The notes beneath the pieces are model-generated. The model ran no database searches and was not told the DNA's origin. It saw nothing but the letters and a program-made list of their open reading frames with translations. A stretch of 64,000 nt of DNA from Myxococcota bacterium. Its GTDB lineage: Bacteria; Myxococcota_A; UBA796; SXON01. Below are positions 59-63,877 of the stretch, one piece after another. The DNA lies in contig JAZKFH010000055.1 of the NCBI GenBank assembly GCA_040386535.1, forward strand, positions 19,817 through 83,816. The letters are read 5' to 3'. The stretch's first letter is position 1; every line of letters begins with the position of its first letter. The position numbers and the translations under genes are program-made.

Positions 59-1111
59 GTGCATCTTGACGAGGCCCACCCGCTTGGGAACGTTGTCGTC
101 ACCGACGATGCTACGCCACCGGATGTGAACGTGCCATTCGCTGTCGCGGGTGGCGTGGCTTGGGTCCGCCGCTCCGAGGGGTGGGTCGCGCTCCCCACGA
201 TCGGCACGGCCGCGGGCGTGCTGGCGCGCAACGCCGGCGTGCTCGAGAGCTCCCTGCTCGCCGATGCGTCGGTCGCCGTCATTGGGCTCGGGAGCGGAGG
301 CGCCATCATCGCTGACCAGCTCGCAAGGGCTGGGGTGGGGCGCTTGGTGCTCGTCGACCGCGACCGCATCGAGGTCGAGAACGTCGGTCGCCACCTCTGC
401 GACCTCACGGACCTCGGCCGCCGCAAGACCGCCGCCGTGGCGGATCGGGTGCGCTCGCGGAACCCGGCGCTGCGCGTCGACACCTTCGACCTCGACGTGC
501 TCGAGGAGCCCGACGCCCTCCGGGCCGCGGTCGAGGGCTGCGCCGTGCTCATCGGCGCAACGGACGGGAACGCGAGCCGCCGCGTCGTGAACCGGCTCGC
601 GGTCGAGACCGGGCGGCCGGCCATCTTCGGCCGCGCATACACCCGCGCCTCCGGCGGCGATGTCGCGCGCGTGGCACCTGGGGGCCCCTGCTACGACTGT
701 CTGTACGCGGGGTTCGTGGCCGACGAAGAGGTGGCGTCATCGCGCTCCGCGGGCGCGCCTGCCTACGCCGACACCCCCGTGCTCGCGGAGCCCGGCCTGG
801 CGCTCGACATCCTCCCCATCGCGCTCATGTGCGCACGGTTGGCGGTGCAGGAGCTCGTGCGCGGCCGCGGCTCCTCGCTGGAGAGCCTCGACGAGGACTT
901 CCCCGGCGCGCTCTTCCTCTGGGCCAACCGGCGCGAGGGGCAGTTCGCCGAGTGGGCGCCCATGCGCTTCGGCCATCGCGGCTTCGCGGTGCACCGCTGG
1001 TATGGCCTCTCGGCCCCACGCAATCCCCGGTGCCCGACCTGCAACGAGGACGCCTTCCTCGCGACCCTGCTCGAGAGCGAGGGGGTGTGCGACCCCCAAT
1101 CCCCGTCCTGA
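59..1111 (+). CDS. ThiF/MoeB/E1-like adenylyltransferase (ubiquitin-activating-enzyme superfamily); N-terminus may continue beyond the window edge
   Basis: Rossmann motif 'VAVIGLGSGGAIIADQLARAGVGRLVLVDRDRIEVENVGRH' is typical of ThiF/MoeB/E1. Two CxxC pairs ('GGPCYDCLY', 'PRCPTCNE') resemble the Zn site of MoeB/ThiF/MccB. The frame stays open back to nt 2, so GTG-59 is only the first in-window start. Confidence 0.8.
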   Translation: MHLDEAHPLGNVVVTDDATPPDVNVPFAVAGGVAWVRRSEGWVALPTIGTAAGVLARNAGVLESSLLADASVAVIGLGSGGAIIADQLARAGVGRLVLVDRDRIEVENVGRHLCDLTDLGRRKTAAVADRVRSRNPALRVDTFDLDVLEEPDALRAAVEGCAVLIGATDGNASRRVVNRLAVETGRPAIFGRAYTRASGGDVARVAPGGPCYDCLYAGFVADEEVASSRSAGAPAYADTPVLAEPGLALDILPIALMCARLAVQELVRGRGSSLESLDEDFPGALFLWANRREGQFAEWAPMRFGHRGFAVHRWYGLSAPRNPRCPTCNEDAFLATLLESEGVCDPQSPS

Positions 1112-1168
1112 TTGGAGTCCCCATTGACCGACCGCAGCCGTCCCTCCCTCCCGTTTTTGGAGCCCGCC

Positions 1169-1936
1169 ATGGACCCCGTCCCCCGCGTCGTCCCCGACGC
1201 CATCCTGTCGCACCCTGACGCCGACGGTCGGCGGGAGGAGCTGTTCTTCGACCGGGGCAGCGGCCGCCTCGTCGTGCACCGTCCGGACGAGGCCACCGCC
1301 GACGAGGTCCCCGCCACGGAGATGGCCCGCACGGGCTTCTTCGCGGAGAACGTTTCGGGGGAAAACCGCGCGGTCCTCCATCGCCTCGAGCGGATCACCG
1401 ATGAGAGCGACGACGAGCTCGTCTTCGACCCCTCGACCGGCAAGCTCATCGTCCAGCGGCGGGGCGCCCCCCCGCCAAGCCCGGACTCGGTCTCCGCCGT
1501 CACGATGGCGCGGACCGGGTTCTTCTCCGGCTCCTCGGCGGTCGGCCCCTTCGCGGAAGGACTCCGGGACGGCGCCAACGGCGTGGACCGCTCGGGCGCC
1601 ACCGCGGTGAGGCACGGCATGCGCGCCGTCGGGGTCCTGGGCGCGGGGACCGCCGGCGCGGCGCTGGCCGGGGCCGGCAGCCTCACCGGGTACGCCGGGC
1701 TCGCCACGGGCGTCTCGACCCTCGGTCTGGGTGGCGCCACCACGACGATCGCATCGGTGGCGGGGCTCACCGCGGCCACGGGCGCGCCCCTCGCCGGCGC
1801 GGCCGCCACGTCGGCGGTGGTCGCTGCTGTGGGCGGGCCGCTTATCGCGGCGGCCGCGGTCGTGGGGGGCGTGGCGGCCGTCGGCTACGGGATCTACAAG
1901 GCGGGCAGTTGGATCGGTGAGGCGTTGTTCGGGTGA
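1169..1936 (+). CDS. Hypothetical protein with two internal ~55-aa repeats and a Gly/Ala-rich glycine-zipper-like hydrophobic C-terminal region
   Basis: ATG-1169 is preceded by GGAG (1159-1162); the ORF track's earliest start is TTG-1112, directly after the E1-like stop. Repeats are 'ELFFDRGSGRLVVHR..EMARTGFFAENVSG' and 'ELVFDPSTGKLIVQRR..TMARTGFFSGSS'. The tail is 'GVLGAGTAGAALAGAGSLTGYAGLATG...AAVVGGVAAVGYGIY' and the protein ends '...IGEALFG'. No family recognised. Confidence 0.6.
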   Translation: MDPVPRVVPDAILSHPDADGRREELFFDRGSGRLVVHRPDEATADEVPATEMARTGFFAENVSGENRAVLHRLERITDESDDELVFDPSTGKLIVQRRGAPPPSPDSVSAVTMARTGFFSGSSAVGPFAEGLRDGANGVDRSGATAVRHGMRAVGVLGAGTAGAALAGAGSLTGYAGLATGVSTLGLGGATTTIASVAGLTAATGAPLAGAAATSAVVAAVGGPLIAAAAVVGGVAAVGYGIYKAGSWIGEALFG

Positions 1937-1952
1937 GGGCGACGGGGCGCGC

Positions 1953-2633
1953 GTGGCCATCGTCTCCGACCTCCACGTCGAACGCGGGGGCGAACTGCCA
2001 GGCGAGGTCGACGCCGACGTGCTCGTCGTCGCCGGTGATCTCGGCGACGCACGCCACGTCGAGGATGCACTCGCTGCCTTGTCCGACAGGGCGCCGGTGG
2101 TCGTATACGTCGCGGGCAACCACGAGTACTACGGGGCGGGCCCAGCGGAGACCAGCGAGCGGCTAGCCCGTGCGGCAGCCCGTCTGGGGAACCTCCGCTG
2201 GCTCGATTGTTCCGTCGTGGACGTGGCCGGCTTGCGCTTCGCCGGCACGACGTTGTGGTATCCGCGGCGCGCGTGGAGCGGGCGTCTGCTCGACGCGGTC
2301 GCGCCCGATGCTCTGTTCGTCCGGGATCTCGCTCCCTGGGTTCACGAGGAGGCTGCCCGCGCCGCCTCGTTCGTCGCGAACGCGGACGCCGACATCCTGG
2401 TGACCCATCACCTCCCTACCTGGCGCAGCGCATCCCGCCGCCTCCGTGATGCGGCCCTGAACGCGTATTTCGTGCACGACCTGGAACCTCACCTCGGTCG
2501 GTTTCGCCTCGTCGTGCATGGGCACACCCACCGGGCGTTGGACTACCAGGTCGGGAGGTCCCGAGTGGTGTGCCATCCGTGCAGGGCGAGGCCCCGCGTC
2601 ATCGAGGTGGCGCCGCGGGTCGCGGGGGTTTGA
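1953..2633 (+). CDS. Calcineurin-like metallophosphoesterase
   Basis: Ordered metallophosphoesterase motifs: 'IVSDLH', 'VVAGDLGD', 'VAGNHEYYG', 'LVTHHLP', 'VVHGHTHRA'. The start is taken as in-frame GTG-1953, just after the upstream stop (1934-1936). The long ORF 1731-2633 overlaps the previous gene and its 5' part is Arg/Pro-rich junk. Confidence 0.8.
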   Translation: MAIVSDLHVERGGELPGEVDADVLVVAGDLGDARHVEDALAALSDRAPVVVYVAGNHEYYGAGPAETSERLARAAARLGNLRWLDCSVVDVAGLRFAGTTLWYPRRAWSGRLLDAVAPDALFVRDLAPWVHEEAARAASFVANADADILVTHHLPTWRSASRRLRDAALNAYFVHDLEPHLGRFRLVVHGHTHRALDYQVGRSRVVCHPCRARPRVIEVAPRVAGV

Positions 2634-2797
2634 TCGAACCTGTCAGTCGAGGACCCTCGTCGGGCCCGAGGACGACGAGGCTTCAGCGCGCATCGAGGCC
2701 AACGCCCTCCGGCTCGACGAGGAAGACCAGGAAGCGGCCGCGGCGAAGTTGGGCGCACACCGCGCACGGGCGATTACACCGTTACTTCGGAGCTACC

Positions 2798-3721
2798 ATG
2801 CCTCCTCGCGTCCCCGCGCTCCGTGTGTTCGTCGCGACCCGGGCCGTAGACGTATCGGCCGCCTGCCGTCGGTATCTGTCCGTCGATGGGTCGGTCCCGG
2901 GCGCACTCTGCACGTGGGATCACCATGTCACCGGAGAGGACATCAACCTCGACGCGATGCCGGACAGCATCGATCTGACCGGCATCGATGGTGTGGGCAC
3001 CACCCTCGCCGACACCGACGCGCTCGCCAGCGTGGTCGCGGTGCTGCTCGGGGGGCGCGCCTATTTGCCTCCACGGGCCCGGGCGGTGCTCGAGGCCGCC
3101 AGTCACCGCTGTGACCACCTGTTGCGGCAGCCCGACTATGACGGTCACACCGACCGACTGGGTGCGCGGCTCCACGCGTTCGTGAGCGCCAGCCTCGCGC
3201 GCCAGCCCGTTCAGGCGCGCGGCTCGGAGTTCGCCCGCCTCTGCCGTCTCGTCGCGCGGCGCGTGATGGCCGGCCGGAGCCTGCCTGGCGCCAGCCCGCC
3301 ATCGTGGAAGCGCGCCCTCCGGCTCCTCGCAGAGGACGCCCGGGTGCGCGTTCGGGGACCCTTGTTCGTGGCCGACCTGCGAGGCTTGCCGCCCGAGCGC
3401 GTTCCAGCGCCCGATGCGCTTTACGCGGCCCATCCTACCTGCATCGCGGCGGTGTTTGTCTCGGACCACCGCGTTGGCGGCACCGCCTACACTGTGGGGC
3501 GCAACCCGCTCAACCCCGCGGCACTCCGAGACATCGGACCGGTGCTCGCCGCGCTCGCGAAGGCGGAATTCGCGCATGGGCCCCCGGCAGAGCTCGCAAG
3601 GCCGGGGGCCGCCTCCGAGAACTGGGGCGGGCGGCGTGAGGTCGGGGGCTCGCCGTGGAACTATGGGTCGAGGCTGTCGATCGATACGGTTGTTGGGTTG
3701 GTGGAGGAGGGGATTGGGTGA
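2798..3721 (+). CDS. Hypothetical protein, last gene of the E1-like cluster
   Basis: ATG-2798 lies inside ORF 2570-3721, whose upstream part is Arg/Ser-rich and non-protein-like. The composition is plausible for a globular protein. The competing antisense ORF 2774-3577 is Arg/Gly-rich. No family recognised. Confidence 0.55.
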   Translation: MPPRVPALRVFVATRAVDVSAACRRYLSVDGSVPGALCTWDHHVTGEDINLDAMPDSIDLTGIDGVGTTLADTDALASVVAVLLGGRAYLPPRARAVLEAASHRCDHLLRQPDYDGHTDRLGARLHAFVSASLARQPVQARGSEFARLCRLVARRVMAGRSLPGASPPSWKRALRLLAEDARVRVRGPLFVADLRGLPPERVPAPDALYAAHPTCIAAVFVSDHRVGGTAYTVGRNPLNPAALRDIGPVLAALAKAEFAHGPPAELARPGAASENWGGRREVGGSPWNYGSRLSIDTVVGLVEEGIG

Positions 3722-3860: not shown

Positions 3861-6593
3861 TCAGTCGCACGCTGTGCGCAGGCGCTCGAAGTGGCGCGCA
3901 AGGTCCGGCCCACGGTAGATCTGCGCGAGGGGAGCGGAGGCCATCGCCACCTCGGCGCGGAGCTCCTCGCGAGATGGGCCTGAGGACGCCGCGCCCCAGA
4001 CCGCCGCAGACGTCGGCGGCGCGGCGCCTCGACAGAGTTGAACCGCGAGCGCCGCGGTCCGGAGCTGGCCCATCCTCGGTCCAGACAACGGCGCGGCCTG
4101 CAGCACCACCTCCAGCCGCTCCGTCTGCCCGTCAGCCGCCAAGACGAGGCTCGCGCGCACGACGCACCTCTCAGCGGCCGTGCGGTCGATGCTGGTCAGG
4201 TGACCCATCTGGCCAAGGAGTGCGTCTTGTGCACCAATCTCCGCGGCGGTGTGACATGCCAGGAGCACGGCGGCCCCGCGATGGGGGCCCTCCGTGCGAG
4301 CGAGGGCCGTGAGGCGCGCGTGGAGAGTGTCCACTGGGCGCCCCGGCTCGGCGTGAAGAAGCGCCAGCTCCGCGCTCGCTACGCAGGCCAGCCACTCCGG
4401 GTCGAGCGGCTCTGGCCTCGCCGTGAGCAGCGCGTGCGCAACCGTTGCCAGCGCGGCGGAATTGTCCGCGACGGGCGCAAGGACGGGGCTTTCGGCCAGG
4501 AGTGGCGGCACGAGCGAGCATCCGAGCGCCGTAGCGTTCGCCGTCCGCAGACGGGGCGCTTCGGCGACTCGACCGGGGTTCCCTCTCGGGCGCTCCTCTC
4601 CTGTCTCCACCACAACCCAGGCCTGCGAGAACAGGGTCTGGAGCGCGACGATGTCGGCCTCCCTCAACCGCGCCACCTGTTCATCGGCCGTGAGCGCTGG
4701 ATCGCTGACTGCGAGCCAGTCCCTCACCCCCGCGGGGGCGCCCGTCGCCAGCCGGGCCCATGCCGCATGCCCCCCGGGGACGGTCGACAACGCGGCGAGG
4801 TTGGTTGCCGTCCGCCAGTCGATCGGGGGTGCGGAACCGACGACGACTTCATCGAACGTCCGCCCCTGTGGGCAGACCGCGTTCGACGGGAGGTCGACCT
4901 CCCAGCGCAGCACGGCCCGGCCGGGTTCGTCCACGAAGGGAGGTGTGTCGGCGGCGAACCGCGCGCGCAGATCGGGTGCGAGCGCCACCCAGACGGGCTG
5001 GTCCCGGCAGGTAGCGTGGGCTTCCGGCCACCGCTCGGGTTGCTCCCTCGCCTCTCGCCAGGCGGACAGGCACCCGCGCGCCAGCTCGGCACCGAGGATT
5101 CGGGCCACCACTTCGGGATACCAACCGCTGTCAGAGAGGGCGGCGCGCACAGTGGGCACGTCGCCCGGTTGCCCGCGGACGGCGTCGAGCAGCCATCCCC
5201 CGAAGGCGCGCTCGGATCCTGTGATCAGCGGAGCACCGAGCCGCGTGCGGTCGGCGCTCCGCCAGGTCACAGCGGGGAGCACCTCGCTGCAGAAGCGGGC
5301 AGGCTCCAGGAGCGCCTCCCCGAGCGCAAGGGAGATCCGCTCGCTCGTCCCCCTGTCGTCGGCACACTCGGCGACGTGCGGCCGCAGGGACGCCACCCTC
5401 TCCGCGAGCGGCTGGTCGACGTGAAGCTCGGCGGCCGCAATCGGGAGGCATCCGCACCGGCCGAATCCGCTCGCTCCGAGGCTCGCGCATGCGGCTTGGG
5501 CCAAGCCGCCGAGCGTCTCGGGTTTCCAGAAGGCCCACCCCATCAGGCCGAATGTGGCGCCCAGCATCCCTATCACCGCGGACGCAGCCACTCCCGTCAT
5601 CAGGGAGCTCCGCATCCGCACGCTGGCCGCCATCGCCGCCGTTCGTCGGGCCTCGTCCGCGAGGTACCGCATGCCGACGAGACAGTGACGCGCCGGGAGA
5701 TCGAGGGGACTGTGCTCGAGGGAGGTCTGCAGATAAACCAGGGGGCGCGGGAGCCGGAGGCCTTCGAGGTCCACCAGGAGGTCAGCGCATACTGCGCGCG
5801 TGCACGCGTCGACCCGGAAGTACGCCCGAGCGCGTGCCTCCTCGCCGCCGGTCTCCGCGCGCCGGAGCGCTTCGTAGGCGTCCCTCAGCTCCTGCTGAGC
5901 GCTATCTCCCTCGTCGGGGTCGGCGCCGAAGCTCAGGAGGTCCGCGAAGCCGATCTGGATGGACGAGGCGAGTCCGGAGCAGTCCGCTCCACACCGGGAG
6001 AGGAGGGCGTCGACAAAGTTGGCGCTGTCGCGAAGGTCTTGCCGGACTTCGTGCAGGCCGGGGGCCGACTGCCGAATGGCCCGCTCGTAGGCCGTGCGTT
6101 CGGTGGAGGCGTTCACCCGGCCCCGGCCCACCACCTCACGGTCTCCCCCGACGGGTCTCAGGAACACGACCACGCCCGCCATCCGGGCCCCCTGCAGGAT
6201 CTCGTGGAGCTGGTCTCGCGCCGCGCGGCGGGCCTCCTCGACCTCCCGATGGGCCACCTCCGACGCCGCGGCGGGCTCCTCGGCGGGTGTCGCCACGGCG
6301 ACGTTCAACCTCGGCCGAACCACGTCCCCTGGCAGGTCGATCACCCGGAACACCTTCCTCCGCGGCATGAACAGCAGCCACTCGTCGACGCCTTGCGTGG
6401 GGCTTGCGGCGCTCGGCCGCTCCTCCAGGGTGATGCTTCCGTCTGGGTTGCGGCGCACGAGGCGGCTGCCCTGGTAGTCCTTCCACCGCTCCAGCGTCCG
6501 CGACTTGCCGCAGCGGCGCGGCGCCACGAGCAAAATCGTTGGCAGAGCTTCGAGCTCAGAGCGCGTGCGTGGCAGTTTCGGGGTCCCCCTCAT
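3861..6593 (-). CDS. Large (910 aa) membrane-associated P-loop GTPase-like protein
   Basis: N-terminal Walker A/G1 'LLVAPRRCGKS' and a G3-like 'VIDLPGD'. Mid-protein hydrophobic helix 'LMTGVAASAVIGMLGATFGLMGWAFW'. About 550 aa of uncharacterised C-terminal region. ATG-6593 overlaps the stop of the upstream kinase-HEPN gene (ATGA). Confidence 0.7.
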   Translation of the reverse strand: MRGTPKLPRTRSELEALPTILLVAPRRCGKSRTLERWKDYQGSRLVRRNPDGSITLEERPSAASPTQGVDEWLLFMPRRKVFRVIDLPGDVVRPRLNVAVATPAEEPAAASEVAHREVEEARRAARDQLHEILQGARMAGVVVFLRPVGGDREVVGRGRVNASTERTAYERAIRQSAPGLHEVRQDLRDSANFVDALLSRCGADCSGLASSIQIGFADLLSFGADPDEGDSAQQELRDAYEALRRAETGGEEARARAYFRVDACTRAVCADLLVDLEGLRLPRPLVYLQTSLEHSPLDLPARHCLVGMRYLADEARRTAAMAASVRMRSSLMTGVAASAVIGMLGATFGLMGWAFWKPETLGGLAQAACASLGASGFGRCGCLPIAAAELHVDQPLAERVASLRPHVAECADDRGTSERISLALGEALLEPARFCSEVLPAVTWRSADRTRLGAPLITGSERAFGGWLLDAVRGQPGDVPTVRAALSDSGWYPEVVARILGAELARGCLSAWREAREQPERWPEAHATCRDQPVWVALAPDLRARFAADTPPFVDEPGRAVLRWEVDLPSNAVCPQGRTFDEVVVGSAPPIDWRTATNLAALSTVPGGHAAWARLATGAPAGVRDWLAVSDPALTADEQVARLREADIVALQTLFSQAWVVVETGEERPRGNPGRVAEAPRLRTANATALGCSLVPPLLAESPVLAPVADNSAALATVAHALLTARPEPLDPEWLACVASAELALLHAEPGRPVDTLHARLTALARTEGPHRGAAVLLACHTAAEIGAQDALLGQMGHLTSIDRTAAERCVVRASLVLAADGQTERLEVVLQAAPLSGPRMGQLRTAALAVQLCRGAAPPTSAAVWGAASSGPSREELRAEVAMASAPLAQIYRGPDLARHFERLRTACD

Positions 6594-8335
6594 GGTGTCC
6601 GTCCCTCCCGGGCACGTGAGGCCTCCGACAGCTGTAGGTCGAGGAGCGAGTCCAACGCCGCCAAGCCGCGGTCCAGCGCGGGTAGAGTGGAGTTGGTGTG
6701 TACCGCCCGATTGCGAAGGGCGTTCACCCAGAACGGGACCTGATCCTTGGGCCGGCGCAAGTCCGCCAGGAAGAGGCGCACGTACGGATCGTTCATCCCG
6801 GGTCCTTCATCAAGGCCCCGCAGGAGCGTGAAAACCTTGTGTGCCCCCGCCATGCCAAACGAGGAGTCCCCATGCTTGAGCTTCCACAAGTCCTCGGCGG
6901 TCGTCCCGCGTGCGGTGGCCACGTGCTGGAGAACGGCCTTGTAGAGCCCTTCCATGGCGTTGTTTAGCTCCACGAGTTGCCCTCTGCGCGTCGTCTCCGA
7001 GGCTTCCGGGGAGCGGGCTGGCGAGAGGTAGTGCTGGACCCGGATGATGGCCTGCTCGATGACGTGGAGCCGCGGGTCCGGGTGCGACGCGCGCTGGAGG
7101 GGGCCACGCGGTCGTAGCGCATGCGCGAACTCCGTGCAGGAGGCAAAGCGCTTCTCCGGGTCCACGGAGAGCGCACGCTGGATGGCGGCGTTCTGCGAGG
7201 AGCCAAGGCCCGGAATGACCGATGGGGCCTGCTCGTCGTCTTCGAGCTCCCGGCCAAGGACCACGGCGAGAAACACCCGCGCGAGGCTGAACTGATCGGA
7301 GGCCTGGCGGGAGAGCCTCTCGCGCTGCTCCGGGGCGGCATAAGGTGGGGACAGCCCATGAAATTCACTGCCGCTGAGCGTGATTCCGCCGTCGGCCCGC
7401 GGACCGACCTCTCCCCGGATGGAGATTCCGAAGTCGGTGATGCAGTACTCCGGGGCGCCATCTCCCGTCGACCGCAGGATGTTTGCCGGCTTGACGTCGA
7501 GATGGAGCACGTGCTTCGCGTGGGCGTGATCCAGCCCCGCTGCTATCTGTCGCACCATCTCAACCGCCTCCGCAGGCGCCCAGGGGGCGCGGAGGTGGTT
7601 GTCAAGGGAGAGGCCGCCGTGATGCAGCACCGCGTAGAGCCCCACCTCCGGTTGCTGCTCAAGGAGCAGGTAGCCGCAAATGTTGCTGTGGCGGAGCCTG
7701 GTCGCGAGAAGGTACTCGTCCTTCAATCGCACGCGGTGCTCCTGGCGTGTCGCCACCTTGAGCACGCGTGGTTGTCCGGAGCCTTCCTCCTCCACGGCGT
7801 ACGCGGTGGAGAAGCCGCCCTCCCCAAGGGGGCCGACCACGCGCCACCGATGGCCCACGAGCTGTCCCTTCTGGAGGGGCTGAGGTTGAATCGTGGAACC
7901 CGACGAATCGGGCTCCGACGCTACCGCCCTGGGCCCCTCTGGACTTGGCGCATTCTGCTGCAGTATCTCCGCAGCCGACACGTCAGGTGCGGTGCGGCGG
8001 CGGAAGGCCGCGGCCGCGAGCTCGGGGAACAGGTCCCCCAGGCCTCCGTCCGGGGCCGCCCCGAGTCGCGAGCGGACCGTCGCGACGTCCAGCCGTGTGG
8101 CGGCGGCGATCGCCGCGTCGAGGTGGGCGCGCCGCGCCAGGTCGACGCGCACTTGGCGCAGCCGCTCCGCCGAGACCGGCCACTCTTGTTCGAATGCCTC
8201 GGCCACCGTGGCGGCAGGAGACGTGTTCAGGCGCTGGGTGACGTGGTGCTTCTCCAGTCCCGTTAGGCGTTGCACCATCCTCGTCTCAGCATCGTCAAGG
8301 CTGCGGACTCTGCGCGAAGCAAGCGGGATCGTCAT
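6590..8335 (-). CDS. Ser/Thr protein kinase with C-terminal HEPN (predicted RNase) domain
   Basis: Hanks kinase motifs: 'GPLGEGGFSTAY', 'RVLKVA', 'HLDVKPANIL', 'ITDFGIS', 'YAAPEQ'. The C-terminal helical domain carries the HEPN Rx4H motif 'ALRNRAVH' (nt 6698-6715, checked on the DNA), preceded by 'MAGAHKVFTLLRGL'. Confidence 0.85.
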   Translation of the reverse strand: MTIPLASRRVRSLDDAETRMVQRLTGLEKHHVTQRLNTSPAATVAEAFEQEWPVSAERLRQVRVDLARRAHLDAAIAAATRLDVATVRSRLGAAPDGGLGDLFPELAAAAFRRRTAPDVSAAEILQQNAPSPEGPRAVASEPDSSGSTIQPQPLQKGQLVGHRWRVVGPLGEGGFSTAYAVEEEGSGQPRVLKVATRQEHRVRLKDEYLLATRLRHSNICGYLLLEQQPEVGLYAVLHHGGLSLDNHLRAPWAPAEAVEMVRQIAAGLDHAHAKHVLHLDVKPANILRSTGDGAPEYCITDFGISIRGEVGPRADGGITLSGSEFHGLSPPYAAPEQRERLSRQASDQFSLARVFLAVVLGRELEDDEQAPSVIPGLGSSQNAAIQRALSVDPEKRFASCTEFAHALRPRGPLQRASHPDPRLHVIEQAIIRVQHYLSPARSPEASETTRRGQLVELNNAMEGLYKAVLQHVATARGTTAEDLWKLKHGDSSFGMAGAHKVFTLLRGLDEGPGMNDPYVRLFLADLRRPKDQVPFWVNALRNRAVHTNSTLPALDRGLAALDSLLDLQLSEASRAREGRTP

Positions 8336-8878
8336 CGGGGTGCAGCATACCGCGGGCGGCGCCTTCTAGGGCCGGAGAGTGACGACGAGAACGCGCCCGA
8401 TTTCGAGGACGAGCACGAGCGTTCGGCGCCAAGCGATAGACGCGTCCCACACAGCCATTTCCTTCACACACGCGTCGCGCCCGACCAACAGCTCGACGAA
8501 CTCGTACCCAGGCGTCGACGTCGACTGCGTCGGCCGAGGGGGCCTACACGGCCCGCTCCACTCCTCGGTCCGGAGGACTCATTGGACCCGCTCGGAGGAG
8601 GCGACGCCCTCTTGTCGGTGCGACTGTCGCAGGGGAGCATCGAACCATCCGCCGAGGCGGGAAGGAGCGGCCAGAGGCGGACGCGGCTGCCCGATGAGGA
8701 CGCCGCCCGAGCCGAGCAACCGCGCACATCGAGCCGCGGACTGCCCGGGCGCCGTTGCGTCGTGAGGCGCTGCTATCCACGAGGGGCGTCGTACTTGGAG
8801 ATGGTGAGAGGGTAGAATTGAGCTGGAACCGCGGGCCGAACCGAACCTGATCGCCCGTCAGACCCCGGGACCCAAACC

Positions 8879-11800
8879 TCACCCCACCCCAACCACCACC
8901 TCGTCCTGCACCGTCGCCCCTCCACGAGCAAGCAGCTCGGCAAGGCCGTGCTCCATCGCGGTGATCACGCCCGACCCGAGGCGATGCAGCTCGAAGATGC
9001 GCGCGCCCGCGCGGTGGAGGTCGGCGGCGGGCAGCGAGACCTCGCGCAGGAGAACGTAGGCCATCGCATTGGCCACCTCCTCGGGAGGGAGTTCGTCTGC
9101 GTCACGACGCGTTCCGTCCTCCGCCGCCCCGCGAACCGTCGGCCAGGTGCGGGGATCCTGGTCGGGCCGCCACAAGAAGCCGCCGCGCCGGATCACCTCT
9201 CGTCGGGTCACCATGCCGCGCAAAACCTGGTCCAGCGTGCCGTTCAGCCGCGCGCCGGTCCGCGCGAAGCCCCACGCGGCTGCGACGCGACGGAAAGTCG
9301 CGCCGCCGTCCACTGGCGCCTCTACGCTAACGATCTGGAGGATCTGCGCCCTGATCCGCTCGGGCGAGGCGTGAAAGTCACCGGTCACCGCGGGCAGGGT
9401 GGCACGCACCCAGGGCACCGGGGTGTGCGGGCCCGGGGCGGAGGCCGAGAGCGTGGGCGTCGAGACCCCTGGGGACGGCGCCGGCAGGGCCCAGGGAGGC
9501 GGGACCGGGGCGGGCGGTGCGGGGACCGGCGGCAGTGGGACCTCGCCGGCCTCGGCGCGCGCTAGCGCATCGAGCAGGCGCTGTGACTCGTGGTCCCGGG
9601 ACTGCAACCAATCGAGCGTCCAGACGCGATGCAAGTGTACCCAGCCGAGCCCGCGAAGCACTTCCTGTCGCAGCCGATCGCGCTCGCGGGCCGTACGGAG
9701 CGAGTGGTAGCCCGGTCCGTCGATCTGCACGCCGAGCAGAAAGCTGCGCCCATCGGGGGCGAGCACGGCAACGTCGACGCGTTGGCCGGACCGGCCGACG
9801 TCGAGCCGCACCGCGCAGCCGTGGGCGCGCAGCACCGCGGCGACGTCGGCGGCGATCGCGGTGGGCTCGACGGCGCCCGGCTGGTCCACGCCGGCGAGAT
9901 CGCTCGTCACGTAGGCCAGGAAGCGCCTCAGGTCGTGCACGCCCGCGGCCTGGGTGCGGCCGAGGTCGATCTGCTCGGGCCGTAGGGAGGTGTAGACGAT
10001 CAACTCCTGTCGGGCGCGGGTGACCGCCACGTTGAGCCGCCGCTCGCCCCCCTCGAGGTTGAGCGGCCCGAAGTTCATCGCGATCGCACCGGTGGCATCG
10101 GGCCCGTAGCAGATCGAGAAGAGGATGGTGTCCCGCTCGTCGCCCTGTACGTTCTCGAGGTTTTTGACGAACACCGGTTCGGCGGTGCTCGCGCCGAAGT
10201 GGCTTTCGATCTCGGGCGAGCTACGCCGCGCCTGGTCGAGCAGGTCCTCGATGAGCGCCTGCTGTGGCAGGCTGAAGGTCACGATGCCGAAGCTGCGATC
10301 GGCGGGCGCTGCCAGCCGGAGCCGTGCCACCAGGGCCGCGACGAGCGTCTCCGCCTCCCGTCGATTCGTGCGGGTGGCCGCCCTGTCGTAGACTCCGTCG
10401 ACCACGTGTACGCCGTGTACGCCCAGCCCGGGCTCCGCTCGGCGCGCGCTCGGGAAGGTGCAGAGCCGCCCTTCGTAATAGGCGCCGTTGGAGAACGCGA
10501 TGAGCGACTCATGGCGGCTGCGGTAGTGCCAGAGCAGCGAGCGCTGGGGGATGCCGGCGGCGATCGCCTCGTCGAGCACGCTCTCGAGCTCCGCGGGCGT
10601 GTCCTCGTCGCCTGTCTGGTCGGGCGCCTCCACCTGGCGGCGGAAGAAGGAGGTGGGCGGGAGCTGCCGCGAGTCGCCTACAATGATCGCCTGGGTGCCC
10701 CGCGCGAGCGCGCCGATTGCGTCCTGGGTACAGATTTGTGATGCCTCGTCGAATACGACGAGGTCGAACCTCATCTTCCCGGCCGGCAGATATTGGGCGA
10801 CCGACAGCGGGCTCATCAGCAGGCAGGGCTTGAGACGCCCGAGCAGGTTCGGGATGCCCGCGAGCAGCGCACGGATGGGCACGTGGGCCCGCTGTTTGCG
10901 GGTCTCCCGGAGCAGGAAAGCCACCTCCGAGCCCTGGCTCGCGTTGCCGTCGGCGATGCCGTCCGGGCGGCGCGCTGCGACGGTCTGCGCGACGAACCGT
11001 TGGGCCAGCGCCATCAGCGCACGATCCTCAGCAGCGAAGCGGTCGGCGAACCGGTCGCGTGAGGTGGTGGCGAAGCCGCGGAGCGCCGCGTCGCCGGCGA
11101 TCGTGTGTTCGAGCCAGCGCTCGGCCCGCGCTCGCATGAATGTGGCCGAGAGCCCGGACGCGCTCACCGCCGCGACCCGGTGCGCGTGGACAGCGTCGGC
11201 ACTGCCCGTGTCGACAGCGCGGCCCGCCGCGCGCTGGTAGGCGATCCAATCGTTGAGCCGGGCTAGGTCGCCGAGTCGGGCCGCATCCGTGGTCGGCGGC
11301 CGCCGCACCAGGCGGTCTAGCGCGATGACGAGCCCATCGAGGTGACCGGGATCGCCCGCGGGCGGCCAGGGCGAGGGTGCGAACGGGAGCCGTGCCTCCA
11401 GGCCGGCGAGCGCGACTTCGTACGCGGCCAGGGCGCCCTGCGCCGCCACGACCACCGGACCGAGCTGCGCCCGGCCGCGCGCAGTCCATGCCTCCATCGC
11501 CGGCAGCTCCGCGTGCAGAGCGCGGGCGTGTTCGATCCAGGCGAGTACTACGCCGATACGGGTGGATTCGTCGGGGACGAGCGCTCCGGCAGTTTCGGGC
11601 GCACCGCCCGGAAATGTGTGGCACCACCACTTCGACAGCTGGTCGACTTCCGCCGTCTCCTTCTCGAGCGCGAGCGCGGTGGCGAGGTCTGTGGCGATCT
11701 GGCGATCCGGGGGCAGCGCACCGACGCAGGCGCGTCGCACGACGGCGCGGGCCCCGTAGAGCAGAAAGAACCTGAACAACGGGACGGTGCCGGCCCACCG

Positions 11801-14413
11801 TGCGAATCGGCCAGCAAGCCGAGCGAGCGGCAGCTGTGTTAGTACGGGGAGGTAGCGCTGACCGAGGTCGGCACGGGCCTCTCGCCGCCGGACCAGCGCT
11901 TCTGCCAGCCGATGCGCTGCCGTCCGCGCGGCGGGGAAGCCGGGGTCAGCAACGGCGCCGCCGGCGACCTCGGCGTCGAGCGGTACCGGGGTCGCCGCGT
12001 GAGCGCCGAGCCGTGTCATCCGCTCGATGGCGCTCGGGTCGCCGGTCGACGCGACGCCGAGCGCCCGGGAGAGCGCCTCGCCGGCTGCCCCGAGCGTCTC
12101 GGCCGCGTGGCGCAGGGTGTCGACGGCCGCGACCGCCTCGACGGTATCGCGTGGTGTCCACGCGCTGAGGATGTCGGCGTGCGGGCAGAGCGCGCGCCAC
12201 GGATGTACACCGACCGGCTCGACCCGCGCACCGGCCTCCACGAGGTCGGCGATGGCGTCGGCCGCAGCCCTCGCGGCTTCTGGCGAGGTGGCCGGCGGGA
12301 TGCGCCAGGCTGTCGCGGGCGCGTCGCGCAGATCGAGCAGGGCGGCGCAGACCGCGAACACGCTGTCTCCGGACGGGCGGGCACGGTGCAAGGCGGCAGC
12401 GTGCGCGTCGAGCGCTCCGGCGAGCGTCGTGACCGAGCGGGTCGCGGCCTCGTAGAACCCGCCGGCGCCCGGCTCGCCGCGGCGCATGGCGGCGGCGAAC
12501 TGTTGCGTCACGGCGCGCTTGTTGGCCTTGTTGGAGTGCAGCTCCAGGCAGGCGTCGCCCACGCCCGCCTGATCGAGCCGGCGCTGCACCACCTCGAGCG
12601 CGGCGAGCTTCTCGGCGACGAAGAGTACGGTCCTGCCACCGGCGAGGGCGGTGGCGATGATGTTGGCGATGGTCTGCGACTTGCCCGTGCCCGGCGGCCC
12701 CTGCAACACGAAGGAGCGCCCCTCGGCGGCGGCGCGAACGGCGTCGAGCTGGCTCTGGTCGGCGTCCAGCACCAGCGGCAGGTGCGTCGGCGCGAGCTGG
12801 CCGGTGTGGCGCGCTGCGGTCGGATCGCCGAGCGCGAGCAGACGCAGCACCGGGCTCTCCAGCAGCACCGCGGCGTTGTCGTTCAGGTCCCGCCATAGGG
12901 TGAAGCGCGAGAAGGTGAAGGGGCCGAGCCAGGCCTGCTCGCGCACCTCCCACCCCGACTGCGCCGCAATGGCGGCGCGGACACGCGCGCAGATCCAGGC
13001 GACGTCGATGCCGCTGCCGTCCGCGGGCGGGTCGAGCAGCGCGCTGACGTCGATGCCGAAGTCCCGCGCGAGCTTCTCCACGAGCGCGTGGTTGGGGAGG
13101 GGATCCTCGTCGCTTCGGCGCAGCTGCCAGGGCGCTCCGGCGCGCGCCTGCTCGAGCCGGGCCGGGTACAAGATCAACGGAGCGAGCCGAACTTCGCTCC
13201 CAGGTCGCTCACGCCACGCGAGCGCGCCCACGGCGCAGAACAGGATGTTGAAGCCTGCGTCCTCGATGGCGATACGAGCGTTTCGGGCAAGTGTCACCAG
13301 CCGGCGATCGAGCTCGGTCGTCGTCAGGGAACACTGTACCCACCCTTTGCGCAGTGCGTCCGCCTGGGCGGCCTCGGCCTCGGCGACATCGAGGGTCTTG
13401 GCTCGCGGCTGTTGGCCCACGAGACGTAGCGAGGTACCGCGGGCCAGCATGTCCTCGAACGCGCCGAGGTCGGTCTGGTCGAGGCAGACGAGGCTGCGGC
13501 CGTCGGCACGGAAATGCAGCAGACGGTTGCGGAGGGAGAGGTCGAGAAGCAGGTCCCGCCACCGGTCGATGCGGGGCACGGGGCCGCCGCCGTCCAGCAG
13601 GGCGGCGAGCAGCTGGGTGGCGTCGGCGGGCCGGGCGAGGGGATCGACGCTGAGAGCCGAACGCAGCACTCGCCGAACGGCGACCGGCGCGTCGGGCACG
13701 TGGCGCTCGATGGGGATGTGTCGGCCGTCGGCGACCGCGACATAGACGTCCATGTCGGTCTCACCCTCGAAGGGCAGCCGGCCGCTGACCAACTCGTACA
13801 GCATCACGCCGAGCGACCAGACATCGGAGCGCGCATCGACCGAGGACGGATCGCGCAGCTGCTCGGGGCTCATGTACGCGGGCGTTCCCATGCGGGTGCC
13901 GACGCGCGTACGGGCTGGGCCGGCTTCGGCGGGGCGCCCGATCTTTGCGATCCCGAAGTCTACGAGCATGGGCCGCGGCCCCGCCGGCCCGAGCTCGATG
14001 AGCACGTTGGCGGGCTTCAGATCACGGTGCACCACGCCGCGGTCGTGGACCGTCCCCACCACCGCGAGCAGCGCACGGAACAGGCCAAGCCGCGCCGCGA
14101 CGTTCACCCCCTCGGCCCACACGTCCAGGGTGTCGCCGGGCACGCGGCGCATCACGAAGCCGGCCACGCCCGGCTCCACCACGATGTCGGTCACCTCGAC
14201 GACACCGGGCAGGCGGATCGTCGCGAGCAGGCGTGCCTCGTCGAGGAACCGGCGCCGCACCTCGACGTTCACCACGTGCTCCGGGCGCAGCACCTTCAGC
14301 GCGCCTGGTGCCCCGAGAACGTGGTGGCGCACGGCGTACACGATGGACATCCCGCCTTCGCCGAGCAAGCCCTCGACGACGTAGGCGCCGACGATGTCTC
14401 CGATCGCGAGCAT
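8879..14413 (-). CDS. Ser/Thr kinase fused to a DUF4011-like region, an Upf1-like SF1 helicase, a restriction-endonuclease-like domain and a DUF3320-like tail (1844 aa)
   Basis: Kinase: 'GLLGEGGMSIVY', 'VVHRDLKPANVLI', 'LVDFGIAK', 'GTPAYMSPEQ'. Helicase: Walker A 'LQGPPGTGKSQT' (nt 12680-12700), Walker B 'LVVFDEASQ', 'IIVGDSRQLPP', 'ENVQGDERDTILFS', 'RLNVAVTRARQELIVY'. DUF559/Vsr-like nuclease-fold segment: 'RVDVAVLAPDGRSFLLGVQIDGPGYHSLRTARERDRLRQEVLRGLGW'. Confidence 0.9.
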   Translation of the reverse strand: MLAIGDIVGAYVVEGLLGEGGMSIVYAVRHHVLGAPGALKVLRPEHVVNVEVRRRFLDEARLLATIRLPGVVEVTDIVVEPGVAGFVMRRVPGDTLDVWAEGVNVAARLGLFRALLAVVGTVHDRGVVHRDLKPANVLIELGPAGPRPMLVDFGIAKIGRPAEAGPARTRVGTRMGTPAYMSPEQLRDPSSVDARSDVWSLGVMLYELVSGRLPFEGETDMDVYVAVADGRHIPIERHVPDAPVAVRRVLRSALSVDPLARPADATQLLAALLDGGGPVPRIDRWRDLLLDLSLRNRLLHFRADGRSLVCLDQTDLGAFEDMLARGTSLRLVGQQPRAKTLDVAEAEAAQADALRKGWVQCSLTTTELDRRLVTLARNARIAIEDAGFNILFCAVGALAWRERPGSEVRLAPLILYPARLEQARAGAPWQLRRSDEDPLPNHALVEKLARDFGIDVSALLDPPADGSGIDVAWICARVRAAIAAQSGWEVREQAWLGPFTFSRFTLWRDLNDNAAVLLESPVLRLLALGDPTAARHTGQLAPTHLPLVLDADQSQLDAVRAAAEGRSFVLQGPPGTGKSQTIANIIATALAGGRTVLFVAEKLAALEVVQRRLDQAGVGDACLELHSNKANKRAVTQQFAAAMRRGEPGAGGFYEAATRSVTTLAGALDAHAAALHRARPSGDSVFAVCAALLDLRDAPATAWRIPPATSPEAARAAADAIADLVEAGARVEPVGVHPWRALCPHADILSAWTPRDTVEAVAAVDTLRHAAETLGAAGEALSRALGVASTGDPSAIERMTRLGAHAATPVPLDAEVAGGAVADPGFPAARTAAHRLAEALVRRREARADLGQRYLPVLTQLPLARLAGRFARWAGTVPLFRFFLLYGARAVVRRACVGALPPDRQIATDLATALALEKETAEVDQLSKWWCHTFPGGAPETAGALVPDESTRIGVVLAWIEHARALHAELPAMEAWTARGRAQLGPVVVAAQGALAAYEVALAGLEARLPFAPSPWPPAGDPGHLDGLVIALDRLVRRPPTTDAARLGDLARLNDWIAYQRAAGRAVDTGSADAVHAHRVAAVSASGLSATFMRARAERWLEHTIAGDAALRGFATTSRDRFADRFAAEDRALMALAQRFVAQTVAARRPDGIADGNASQGSEVAFLLRETRKQRAHVPIRALLAGIPNLLGRLKPCLLMSPLSVAQYLPAGKMRFDLVVFDEASQICTQDAIGALARGTQAIIVGDSRQLPPTSFFRRQVEAPDQTGDEDTPAELESVLDEAIAAGIPQRSLLWHYRSRHESLIAFSNGAYYEGRLCTFPSARRAEPGLGVHGVHVVDGVYDRAATRTNRREAETLVAALVARLRLAAPADRSFGIVTFSLPQQALIEDLLDQARRSSPEIESHFGASTAEPVFVKNLENVQGDERDTILFSICYGPDATGAIAMNFGPLNLEGGERRLNVAVTRARQELIVYTSLRPEQIDLGRTQAAGVHDLRRFLAYVTSDLAGVDQPGAVEPTAIAADVAAVLRAHGCAVRLDVGRSGQRVDVAVLAPDGRSFLLGVQIDGPGYHSLRTARERDRLRQEVLRGLGWVHLHRVWTLDWLQSRDHESQRLLDALARAEAGEVPLPPVPAPPAPVPPPWALPAPSPGVSTPTLSASAPGPHTPVPWVRATLPAVTGDFHASPERIRAQILQIVSVEAPVDGGATFRRVAAAWGFARTGARLNGTLDQVLRGMVTRREVIRRGGFLWRPDQDPRTWPTVRGAAEDGTRRDADELPPEEVANAMAYVLLREVSLPAADLHRAGARIFELHRLGSGVITAMEHGLAELLARGGATVQDEVVVGVG

Positions 14414-15091
14414 TGACTACCTGGGAGCGGGGAGAGGTATCTCGACGGAGCGCTCGCTTGGCGTGGACACGGTGCGAGTCTCAGACACGAAGCGCTTCCC
14501 AACGTCGGGCGCGCTGCGTAGCGGGGCGTGTAGAAAGCGGGGGATCGTCGAGGAGGTGGCTGAGCCCCCGTGGGGCTCGTACTGGCCACCGAGGTTGCTC
14601 CTTGGGCCCGATCATGGCGGGCGCACGGTACCACGGGCTGATGGTGGGGCGGGATCGGGCGGAGACGTCGGTATTCATGTGGACTCGCCTCGTACGGACG
14701 GTCGTTCGGGTGCCGCGAGAGGCCCGGCCGCGCCGCGCGCCCCTCAACTCGGAAGGGTCCACCAGGATCAATGTGGACCAGTTGGTGATGATCTTCGGGC
14801 GTTGCGCTCTGGGAAGCCATGCGGCGAGATCAGCCGCATGACCGTACCGGCCGGCTCGCAGCCGCGATCGAAAAATCTCGGGCCCACCGGACGGCGTGCG
14901 GGTGCCCCGCGCGGCGAGGCGGCGCACCGGCTGGCCGCGGACCTGAGGCCGTTTTGGTGGCCGGGGTCGGAGGACATCGCGGGGTCAAGCCGCACCACCG
15001 GACGGAGCTATGGTAGAAGAAGGCACGGCGGTGCGGACCTGCTGGTGATAGCCAGCGATCCATCCGATGAATCTACTTCAGCGAGAATGAC

Positions 15092-16105
15092 ATGAGTGAC
15101 AAGCCCACAGCCGAGTCCGAACTTCAATCTGGTCTGACCGGCAAGCTGCTGGCCGTGTTCGATTCCGGGGTCGAGAGCCGCAGAGGCTTCTACGAGGCCA
15201 ACCCGGACAAGGTGCCGTCGACCCGGGAGATCGATTCGATCATCTCCGCCTGTGCGAACACCAACGCCGTGATTTCAGGTGGACTCAGTCTCCTTCCGGG
15301 CCCGTGGGGACTCGTCGCCATCATCCCGCAGATGGTGTTGGTGATCCAGAATCAGGTCAAGATGATCTACGACATCGGCGTAGCGAGCGGGAAGCAGAGC
15401 GTCCTCACCCGGGAGCTCATCCTGAGCATCGCGCTCTCCGCCTCCGGAGTCAGTGGCATGAGCCTTCTGACCATGCACGGAAGCAAGATCTTGGTGCGGC
15501 GCTCTTCGGTCCGCGTGTTCCAGAAGCTCGTTGCGATGTTCGCCGGCAAGGTCACTCAGCAGGTACTGAAGAAGTCGATTGCCCTGTGGTTACCGATCAT
15601 CGGCGCCGCGGGGATTGCGGTGTGGACCCGCTACAGCACGGCCGAAATCGGACGGAAGGCCAAAGAGATCTTCGCCCACGAAATCGAGATCCTCCCTGAA
15701 GGCGACGCCGATGAGGAGTCTGTCGTAGTTGGGGACGCCGTTGGGACCGCGTCGTCGTTAGAAGCGCTCATGGTCGCCAAGCTTCTTCTGCTCGATGATC
15801 TCATGAAGTGCGACGGCGAAGCGGCGCCTGCGGAACACGCATTCATCAACGAACTGCTCAGTCGCAGCGGACTCGGGCCCGAAAGCCGGATGCTCCTGAT
15901 CAAACGCTTTGATGAGCCGTCCCCCAGAGTGGTGGACCTCGCTCCTTTCCGGGCCGATCGGGACGAGGCGATCGGCCTCCTCATTGACCTCGCGGCCATG
16001 GCCAAGAGGGACGGGAGCCTGAAGGACTCGGAGCGCGCGTTCGTTGTCCGGACCGCGCACGAAGTCGGCCTCGGGGAGAACCAGGTCGCAGCCGCGCTCG
16101 CCTGA
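15092..16105 (+). CDS. EcsC-family domain fused to a TerB-like domain
   Basis: The N-terminal half 'SACANTNAVISGGLSLLPGPWGLVAIIPQMVLVIQNQVKMIYDIGVASG' resembles the EcsC family. The C-terminal half 'LLLLDDLMKCDGEAAPAEHAFINELL...LIDLAAMAKRDGSLKDSERAFV' resembles the TerB/DjlA-N helical repeat. Codon usage is visibly less GC-rich than in flanking genes. Confidence 0.75.
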   Translation: MSDKPTAESELQSGLTGKLLAVFDSGVESRRGFYEANPDKVPSTREIDSIISACANTNAVISGGLSLLPGPWGLVAIIPQMVLVIQNQVKMIYDIGVASGKQSVLTRELILSIALSASGVSGMSLLTMHGSKILVRRSSVRVFQKLVAMFAGKVTQQVLKKSIALWLPIIGAAGIAVWTRYSTAEIGRKAKEIFAHEIEILPEGDADEESVVVGDAVGTASSLEALMVAKLLLLDDLMKCDGEAAPAEHAFINELLSRSGLGPESRMLLIKRFDEPSPRVVDLAPFRADRDEAIGLLIDLAAMAKRDGSLKDSERAFVVRTAHEVGLGENQVAAALA

Positions 16106-16261
16106 CGCACGGAATGCCGGCCGGTAGGCCGGCATTCCGTCGCTTCCAGGTCTTGGCCGTCACGCTGTCGGGGTGGTGGTCCGCCGGAAAGCCTCCTCCG
16201 GACTCGCCGCCAACGTCTCGGGATGACGTTGGTGGGTTAGCCCATCGTGCGCTGAGAACTC

Positions 16262-18436: not shown

Positions 18437-18463
18437 AGGGCCATCCCGGTGCACGCGGCTGCG

Positions 18464-21715: not shown

Positions 21716-21791
21716 GCGTCGGCTCTCGGGGGGCGCATGGTAGCACACGGCCTCGACCCCGAAGTTGCGTGTGACCCCGACCCAGCTGTGC

Positions 21792-32151: not shown

Positions 32152-32177
32152 CTGCCGCCCCTCTACTCGAAATACGA

Positions 32178-39629: not shown

Positions 39630-39630
39630 G

Positions 39631-60697: not shown

Positions 60698-63866
<3,169 letters not shown>

Positions 63867-63877
<11 letters not shown>

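Follow-up and report, generated by a model that had tools for sequence, protein, structure and literature searches.

Immune systems repeatedly use HEPN RNases as effectors (Cas13, Csm6, the Abi proteins and RNase L among them), and how these are switched on is the key mechanistic question in each case. The switches known in bacteria include cyclic oligoadenylates, AMPylation and CRISPR RNA (crRNA). In the eukaryotic enzymes Ire1 and RNase L the RNase domain is KEN, a member of the HEPN superfamily. Dimerisation of the kinase is established for these two enzymes, as are the back-to-back dimers of PknB. Here we describe a bacterial protein of 581 amino acids (aa) in which an N-terminal repeat domain, a Hanks-type Ser/Thr kinase and a HEPN-like C-terminal domain are joined in one chain. 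Its gene lies at 6590..8335 on the minus strand of the window, by which we mean the whole stretch of 64,000 nt that was analysed (contig JAZKFH010000055.1 of assembly GCA_040386535.1); coordinates are given in window numbering. The reading we favour, at a probability of roughly 55%, is that this protein is the fused form of a rare two-gene conflict module of the defence or abortive-infection type, made up of a PknB-like kinase with a repeat domain and a small HEPN-superfamily protein.

With Ire1 and RNase L the protein shares the order of its parts, a kinase and, directly after it at the C-terminus, a HEPN-type domain bearing an Rx4H motif, and the logic of those enzymes, in which dimerisation of the kinase assembles a composite RNase site, would plausibly apply to it as well. 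The differences are considerable. The kinase belongs to the bacterial PknB/PknA/StkP type: these were the closest PDB matches of a profile of the kinase family (E~1e-37), whose top 60 contained neither Ire1 nor RNase L. The HEPN-like domain is minimal (~150 aa) and, compared with KEN, nearest to the HepT, DUF4145 and Swt1-like forms; its top 50 Foldseek matches to the PDB included no chain of Ire1, RNase L or KEN, and neither did a PDB search with the profile of the small-protein family described below. In place of a lumenal or ankyrin sensor the window protein has a novel N-terminal repeat domain, and in most of its relatives the kinase and the HEPN-like part are separate genes. KEN itself has been listed as confined to eukaryotes (Anantharaman et al. 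2013). The likeness is thus one of domain order only, convergent and of independent origin, and the "RNase L / Ire1-like" label of the original prediction, which had been made from the sequence alone, is retained here as an analogy.

A second point of comparison is provided by the MNT-HEPN systems (MntA-HepT). There too a small HEPN gene directly follows, and overlaps, the gene of a nucleotide-using modifying enzyme, and HepT proteins are the best fold matches of our C-terminal domain. The partner in the present case is, however, a Hanks kinase with a sensor-like N-terminal domain instead of a minimal nucleotidyltransferase (MNT), and in the window the two parts are fused; no nucleotidyltransferase or MNT domain was found in the 581-aa protein, its neighbours in the window or the homologous loci. 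Hanks kinases in defence islands are also known from several anti-phage systems (Stk2, PD-T4-6, PglW of BREX, MAD6 and some Mokosh MkoA). The kinase domain matched the PADLOC models PD-T4-6, PglW, MkoA and mad6 with E-values of 1e-20 to 1e-29, but the likeness is limited to the generic kinase fold, and both the present N-terminal domain and a HEPN partner are lacking in all of these systems. The NCBIfam scores of the protein were 104 bits for MADS6 (cut-off 460) and 67.6 bits for PglW (cut-off 990), and its PD-T4-6 matches covered the kinase domain only. Sensor-HEPN fusions (CARF-HEPN Csm6/Csx1, Abi NTD-HEPN and the CBS-HEPN DS-11) likewise combine an N-terminal regulator with a HEPN effector whose active form is probably a dimer, whereas the regulator here is apparently an active protein kinase. 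No description of a bacterial kinase-HEPN architecture was found in the open-access literature that we searched.

Relatives of the 581-aa protein

We found seven homologous kinases with 32-41% identity to the window kinase, which together with the window protein make up a family of 8 kinases among 5.8 billion proteins. All seven stop right after the kinase domain, and in five of the seven loci this stop overlaps the start of a gene for a protein of 149-167 aa. The free-standing small proteins have lengths of 155 aa (locus L001), 167 aa (L003), 163 aa (L004), 151 aa (L005) and 149 aa (the contig of kinase P0004). A hidden Markov model (HMM) built solely from four free-standing proteins matched residues 425-568 of the window protein with 38.4 bits (E=7e-14 for a single comparison); the highest score in 1000 shuffles was 7.1 bits. 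When the same model was run on all six-frame open reading frames (ORFs) of the window, the C-terminal domain was its sole match (E=4e-10). It follows that the window protein fuses a conserved pair of kinase and small protein, and the relationship between split and fused forms is strong evidence that the two parts act together. Judging from the gene content of these loci, what is conserved is the pair of kinase and HEPN-like protein. No further fused example was found.

The pairing is not universal in the family: two of the seven homologous kinases have no HEPN-like partner gene. In one of these loci (L002, 10001-14557) the family kinase P0005 is followed by bpMoxR AAA+ and VWA genes and by a 1817-aa unknown protein. 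This locus suggests a portable sensor or regulator, made up of the kinase and its N-terminal domain, whose partners downstream can be exchanged. Upstream of P0005 we observed another kinase and an N6/N4 methyltransferase, along with a weak match to MAD7. Three broader searches were run for the family. A word-indexed search with the profile of the small-protein family returned only four small proteins that were already known from the homologous loci. A scan of GTDB with the kinase alignment gave 80 generic kinases, none of them with the N-terminal domain or a HEPN-like neighbour, and a metagenome scan with the family DNA pattern (DVKPxN...DQ[FY]xLA) gave 120 loci, none of which belonged to the family.

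The kinase domain occupies residues ~157-410 (7106..7867, minus strand) and matches Pfam Pkinase PF00069 with 72.8 bits (cut-off 31.7). Its motifs are GEGGF171-175, K193, E207, HLDVKPAN278-285, DFG301-303 and APE334-336. In the 8-member alignment the Gly-rich loop, K193, E207, D280, N285, D301-G303 and A334-P335-E336 are invariant, as is Thr319 of the activation loop. The Arg of the HRD motif is replaced by Leu (HLD), making this a non-RD kinase with a complete set of catalytic residues. By residue content the kinase is catalytically intact, and the intact Hanks core proposed originally is confirmed by both the Pfam score and the invariance of these residues across the family.

The N-terminal domain (residues 1-150; 7886..8335, minus strand) consists of ~60-aa helical repeats (TGLxxxxVxxRL...F..EWP) that are specific to this kinase family, and it is kept in all seven homologous kinases. 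It has no Pfam match. The window protein scored 132 bits with the HMM of the family N-termini, but its own N-terminus was among the input sequences of that model. For the internal repeat, the homologue P0003 gave a significant score (50 vs 23±4.6) and the window protein a weak one (p=0.13). This domain is presumed to be the sensor or targeting part.

The C-terminal domain and competing readings

The C-terminal domain is an all-helical unit of ~160 aa (residues ~420-576; 6608..7078, minus strand), the evidence for which comes from the HMM of the free-standing proteins, a structure model from AlphaFold2 (AF2) and Foldseek. We consider its membership of the HEPN superfamily probable. The Rx4H motif RNRAVH (R541-H546; 6698..6715, minus strand) sits at the end of the penultimate helix, which is the canonical place of the HEPN active-site motif (PMC3710099). 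In HEPN motifs (Rx4-6H) the Arg is commonly followed by a polar residue (N, H, D or Q), which is N in the window protein. An Rx4H motif alone is common by chance; it is the conservation and the position across the family that lift the window motif above chance. In domain numbering L121, N123 and H127 (LxNxxxH) are invariant in all six members of the small-protein family, and the motif Arg is present in three of them, namely the window protein (LRNRAVH), L001 (LRNRVTH) and L005 (LRNEAAH), each of which also keeps a Glu in helix 2. The window copy looks like a catalytically competent version of the domain. The AF2 model has a predicted local distance difference test (pLDDT) of 78.6 and a predicted TM score (pTM) of 0.77. 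Its helices span domain positions 2-21, 28-56, an insert at 61-104, 114-127 (ending at the motif His) and, after a loop, 132-157, and this topology fits the published description of HEPN domains (PMC3710099).

In the Foldseek comparison with the PDB, ranks 1-12 were all HEPN toxins or HEPN proteins (5yep, 8xeh, 8yuf, 6m6w, 1wwp, 8xdj, 6m6u), and 2hsb followed at rank 16. The HEPN matches had probabilities of 0.92-0.99 and target-normalised TM scores of 0.33-0.53. The comparison with the viral structures of BFVD was uninformative. For two of the homologues we also observed Pfam matches below threshold. The L005 protein matched DUF4145 with 21.3 bits (cut-off 23.1, E=2.8e-4) and HEPN_Swt1 with E=9.3e-4, and the L001 protein matched HEPN_Swt1 (E=0.059) and HEPN_Cthe2314 (E=0.15). 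All of these matches span the motif helix.

A number of results weigh against the favoured reading. A check against HEPN families had been suggested, and the window domain had no Pfam match even at E<=10. The consensus of the family did no better (E=0.067 for HEPN_Swt1), the small-protein family profile found no HEPN protein among the PDB sequences, and when 1.84 billion representative proteins were searched by phmmer with the C-terminal domain, only the window protein itself and a spurious repeat protein were returned. The Foldseek E-values of the HEPN matches are only 0.03-0.15, and generic four-helix bundles (cytochrome b562) match too. The alignment behind the AF2 model comprises 5 sequences only. 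Only 8 family members were identified, so that co-occurrence statistics are thin. Finally, the small proteins of L003 (11242-11745), L004 (8191-8682) and P0126 read GNxNEH at the motif: the motif Arg is lost, and the helix-2 Glu is replaced by N or H. The HEPN domain of the original prediction is supported by its motif, the predicted topology and the best structural matches, but not by profile matches, which are missing for the window domain and remain sub-threshold for its homologues. The correlated loss of Arg and Glu suggests that the GNxNEH members are catalytically inactive or differently active. As these are three of the six members, RNase catalysis is not conserved across the family, and the core role of the domain could be non-catalytic.

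A non-catalytic role is what one would expect if the kinase itself were the effector, phosphorylating host or phage proteins on infection in the manner of Stk2 or PD-T4-6, with the HEPN-like domain serving as a regulatory, dimerisation or substrate-recruiting subunit that has retained the shape of a HEPN domain without necessarily cleaving RNA. We regard this as unlikely, though it accounts for several observations: the members without the motif Arg and the helix-2 Glu are nevertheless tightly coupled to an intact kinase, two kinases do without a HEPN-like partner (one being followed by bpMoxR and VWA genes), the catalytic residues of the kinase are invariant in every member, and the kinase domain matches the PADLOC models of kinase-based systems. 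Those matches are generic, however, and an unrelated neighbouring kinase in the window scores higher on the same models. Furthermore the full R-N-x-x-x-H motif together with an acidic helix-2 residue, as seen in the window, L001 and L005, would be unexpected in a purely structural domain, and N and H are kept without exception, also by the members that lack the Arg.

It is also conceivable, but in our view improbable, that the module works like a toxin-antitoxin pair. The HEPN domain would then be a constitutive RNase toxin held inactive through phosphorylation by the kinase, as MNT AMPylates HepT, and infection or loss of ATP would free the toxin. The gene order and the overlap of stop and start mirror the MNT-HEPN operons, in which the modifying enzyme comes first and the small HEPN protein second; HepT-type toxins of MNT-HEPN systems, some of them AMPylated, are the closest matches in structure; and T547, S549 and T550 directly follow H546 in the window protein. 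These Ser/Thr residues beside the motif are, however, not conserved in L005 or the GNxNEH members, toxin and antitoxin in one chain would be unusual for such a pair, and the conserved 150-aa N-terminal repeat domain suggests sensing, not simple neutralisation.

The idea that the C-terminal domain is no HEPN domain at all but a generic helical bundle, for example for dimerisation or scaffolding, with a family-specific RNxxxH and a place in the ordinary Ser/Thr-kinase signalling of a kinase-rich genome, can draw on the lack of any above-threshold HEPN match in the Pfam scans (window domain, homologues and consensus), on Foldseek E-values of 0.03 and above with cytochrome b562-type bundles at similar TM scores, and on the at least six other kinases and the FHA and PP2C genes in the window, but we find it very improbable given that every one of the twelve best fold matches in the PDB is a HEPN protein, that the sub-threshold matches come from three different HEPN-clan families and span the motif helix, that the motif lies where the HEPN active site lies, and that the members of the family sit in defence islands and not in signalling operons.

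The gene junction and the 910-aa partner

Directly downstream of the kinase-HEPN gene lies the gene for a 910-aa protein (3861..6593, minus strand) with an N-terminal P-loop-like region, a helical region, a weak transmembrane segment and a C-terminal part of ~550 aa rich in Ala and Arg. The two genes share the four nucleotides ATGA at 6590..6593 (minus strand). As read from the sequence, the junction on the minus strand is ...GGA CGG ACA CCA TGA GGG..., in which the kinase gene ends on a TGA that overlaps the start codon ATG of the 910-aa gene. A Shine-Dalgarno-like GGGAGGG precedes this start by 8-9 nt. The overlap and the Shine-Dalgarno-like run indicate that the two genes are translationally coupled.

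Both ORFs have a coding-type GC content at the third codon position (GC3), the 910-aa ORF throughout its length. The window has an overall GC content of ~70%. For the three codon positions we obtained GC fractions of 0.74/0.49/0.81 in the 581-aa ORF and 0.76/0.56/0.84 in the 910-aa ORF. Gene callers differ on the start of the latter. One database call opens at codon 141 (770 aa) and so drops the P-loop region (6174-6593, minus strand), whereas a second, independent assembly, which is 100% identical over 11.6 kb, is called with the full 910 aa and the overlap. The codon-position GC of codons 1-140, which bear the NTPase-like motifs, is 0.73/0.53/0.89, and we favour the long form because the GC3 of this part is of coding type. 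On the strength of the independent assembly we also rejected the idea that the kinase-HEPN fusion is an assembly artefact. The ORFs, the ATGA overlap and the motif positions given in the original prediction were all borne out by the sequence.

Upstream, a non-coding spacer of 543 nt (8336..8878, minus strand) separates the kinase-HEPN gene from the kinase-helicase-nuclease gene described below and is presumed to be the promoter region. It contains no ORF with coding-type GC3; a 112-aa ORF at 8544-8882 was rejected on these grounds. No sigma-70 consensus was found in the spacer, a consensus that may not apply to an organism of ~70% GC.

The 910-aa protein carries the Walker A-like motif APRRCGKS (residues 24-31; 6501..6524, minus strand), preceded by the hydrophobic strand TILLV (from residue 19). 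Downstream the motif DLPG (residues 86-89; 6327..6338, minus strand), similar to Walker B or G3, follows the hydrophobic strand FRVI (FRVIDLPG, 82-89). A single transmembrane segment is predicted at residues ~331-353 (5535..5603, minus strand) with an Arg-rich N-terminal flank. Its maximum in a Kyte-Doolittle scan with 19 residues is 1.62, just above the threshold. The two motifs and the helix that had been pointed out are thus present, the helix in weak form. We compared the motifs to composition-preserving shuffles of the protein. A Walker A motif occurred anywhere in 0.77% of the shuffles, and the combination of hydrophobic strand, Walker A and hhhhDxxG in 0.005% (5e-5). The protein has only 5 Lys, one of which sits in the GKS of Walker A. 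As the combined pattern is rare and this Lys is in place, a P-loop NTPase head is plausible on the level of motifs.

The protein had originally been described as GTPase-like. A [NT]KxD motif (G4), the guanine-specificity motif located downstream of G3 (DxxG) in TRAFAC-class or dynamin-like GTPases, was sought. Within the first 330 residues no [NT][KR]x[DE] was found beyond residue 13, and none of the 5 Lys is part of such a motif. Neither the whole protein nor its N-terminal part had a match in Pfam, PADLOC or NCBIfam, and a phmmer search of the PDB returned nothing relevant. A single-sequence AF2 model of the P-loop region was not used (pLDDT 38.5). With no [NT]KxD motif, no profile match and no usable structure model, the GTPase label is unsupported.

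Among 5.8 billion proteins the 910-aa protein matched only itself in a word-indexed search, which may miss distant relatives. Searches of the GTDB species genomes, of plasmids and of all ORFs of the five homologous loci yielded no relative. The partner gene is absent from six of the seven homologous loci; the seventh, L001, has a P-loop protein in the equivalent position. In this closest locus (10001-18286) we observed an operon of four genes, with each stop overlapping the next start, which encodes a kinase of 518 aa (39% identical), the HEPN-like protein of 155 aa, the P-loop protein of 940 aa and a protein of 1149 aa. At its N-terminus the 940-aa protein carries the P-loop GDGKS (AAA_16, E=0.008), and LDLPG is present at residues 84-88, but a Smith-Waterman comparison of the window 910-aa protein with it did not rise above shuffles (p=0.17). 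The C-terminus of the 1149-aa protein, ...GDRVVLLAIESKGS..., looks like a PD-(D/E)xK nuclease motif. In the homologous loci other than L001 we found downstream either nothing or bpMoxR and VWA genes in place of the HEPN gene. By these searches the 910-aa protein is an orphan, a lineage-specific accessory outside the conserved core, and the two-gene module of kinase-HEPN protein and GTPase that had been proposed is not supported, as the partner is not conserved along with the kinase.

Defence-island setting and proposed mechanism

A defence island occupies the left third of the window. A conflict or defence setting had been expected, and it is corroborated by defence-type genes (PADLOC, NCBIfam) in the window and by the homologous loci, which carry BrxC, Cas3-like, MAD7, methyltransferase, HamA, PLD-MZB-helicase, ParE, PIN and WYL genes. 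The L001 operon is flanked by BrxC, Cas3-like and sacsin/NOV_C-like genes. In the window the genes of the defence island have a GC3 of ~0.80-0.87 and the regional GC is slightly lower, which is consistent with horizontal acquisition.

Adjoining the kinase-HEPN gene upstream is a second gene with a kinase in front of a nuclease. It encodes a protein of 1844 aa (8879-14413, minus strand) that consists of an N-terminal Hanks kinase (Pkinase 127.7 bits), DUF4011, a superfamily 1 helicase (AAA_11/AAA_12), an MTES_1575 nuclease and DUF3320. This protein matched the NCBIfam anti-phage model ProA with 1387 bits (cut-off 1500) over profile positions 355-1903, and also Hhe and PADLOC PDC-S37; its kinase takes the place of the first ~354 positions of the ProA profile and is 31% identical to the kinase of the 581-aa protein. 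On the other side, a run of plus-strand genes (59-3721), convergent to the 910-aa gene, may constitute a further conflict system. It comprises a ThiF/E1-like gene (PADLOC E1-E2 E=9e-37; 6A-MBL cap2_3 weak), a 274-aa unknown, a PDC-S10-like metallophosphatase and a 383-aa unknown. Further candidate defence genes are found at 15092-21988: a TerB-domain protein (15092-16105) with a weak PDC-S30 match, a 724-aa unknown protein (16262-18436) and, on the minus strand, a 1174-aa protein (18464-21988) that matches PADLOC PDC-S11 with E=2e-28. Beyond these lies a 1110-aa protein (28936-32268, minus strand) with an N-terminal Tubulin_2 domain (PF13809, E=4e-52), beside or overlapping which there are large ORFs with no Pfam or NCBIfam match (797 aa, 26543-28936).

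The window is unusually dense in genes of Ser/Thr-kinase signalling, as besides the 581-aa kinase it contains at least six other kinases together with FHA and PP2C genes. These include a kinase-SBP_bac_3 fusion (21792-23756), a PP2C (36466-37803), two FHA proteins (37800-40464) and three kinases (40527-42602, 45707-46966 and 46978-48969). Such a density suggests a lineage rich in kinases, for instance a myxobacterium or an actinomycete. Close to the right end we found an RND efflux transporter of the AcrB/AcrD/AcrF family (60698-63877, minus strand; 927 bits) with an extreme GC3 of 0.97, as against the lower values in the defence island.

In the mechanism that we propose, the N-terminal repeats would sense an infection cue, upon which the kinase domains would dimerise and/or autophosphorylate; their activation loop contains the invariant Thr319. 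Two HEPN domains would thereby be brought together into a composite Rx4H RNase site, RNA would be cleaved and growth arrested. In an alternative wiring the kinase would covalently restrain a HEPN toxin, as MntA does with HepT. The 910-aa membrane P-loop protein may act as a lineage-specific accessory, either as a sensor or as a membrane effector. Taken to its full extent, this would make the protein an independent bacterial enzyme of the Ire1/RNase L type, in which an active, infection-sensing kinase licenses a C-terminal HEPN RNase, the split relatives show the route to it, and the orphan adds a membrane-linked input or output. We put this forward tentatively, as a possible but doubtful extension of the reading as a fused conflict module.

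The coexistence of split and fused forms offers a ready-made genetic test of joint action. The family is very rare, with 8 kinases in 5.8 billion proteins, and will therefore be missed by enrichment-based screens for defence systems. If the proposed mechanism is true, the 581-aa protein would be the first prokaryotic kinase-gated HEPN nuclease. A HEPN domain coupled to a kinase would then add phosphorylation or kinase dimerisation to the switches known from bacteria, and would represent a convergent counterpart of Ire1 and RNase L.

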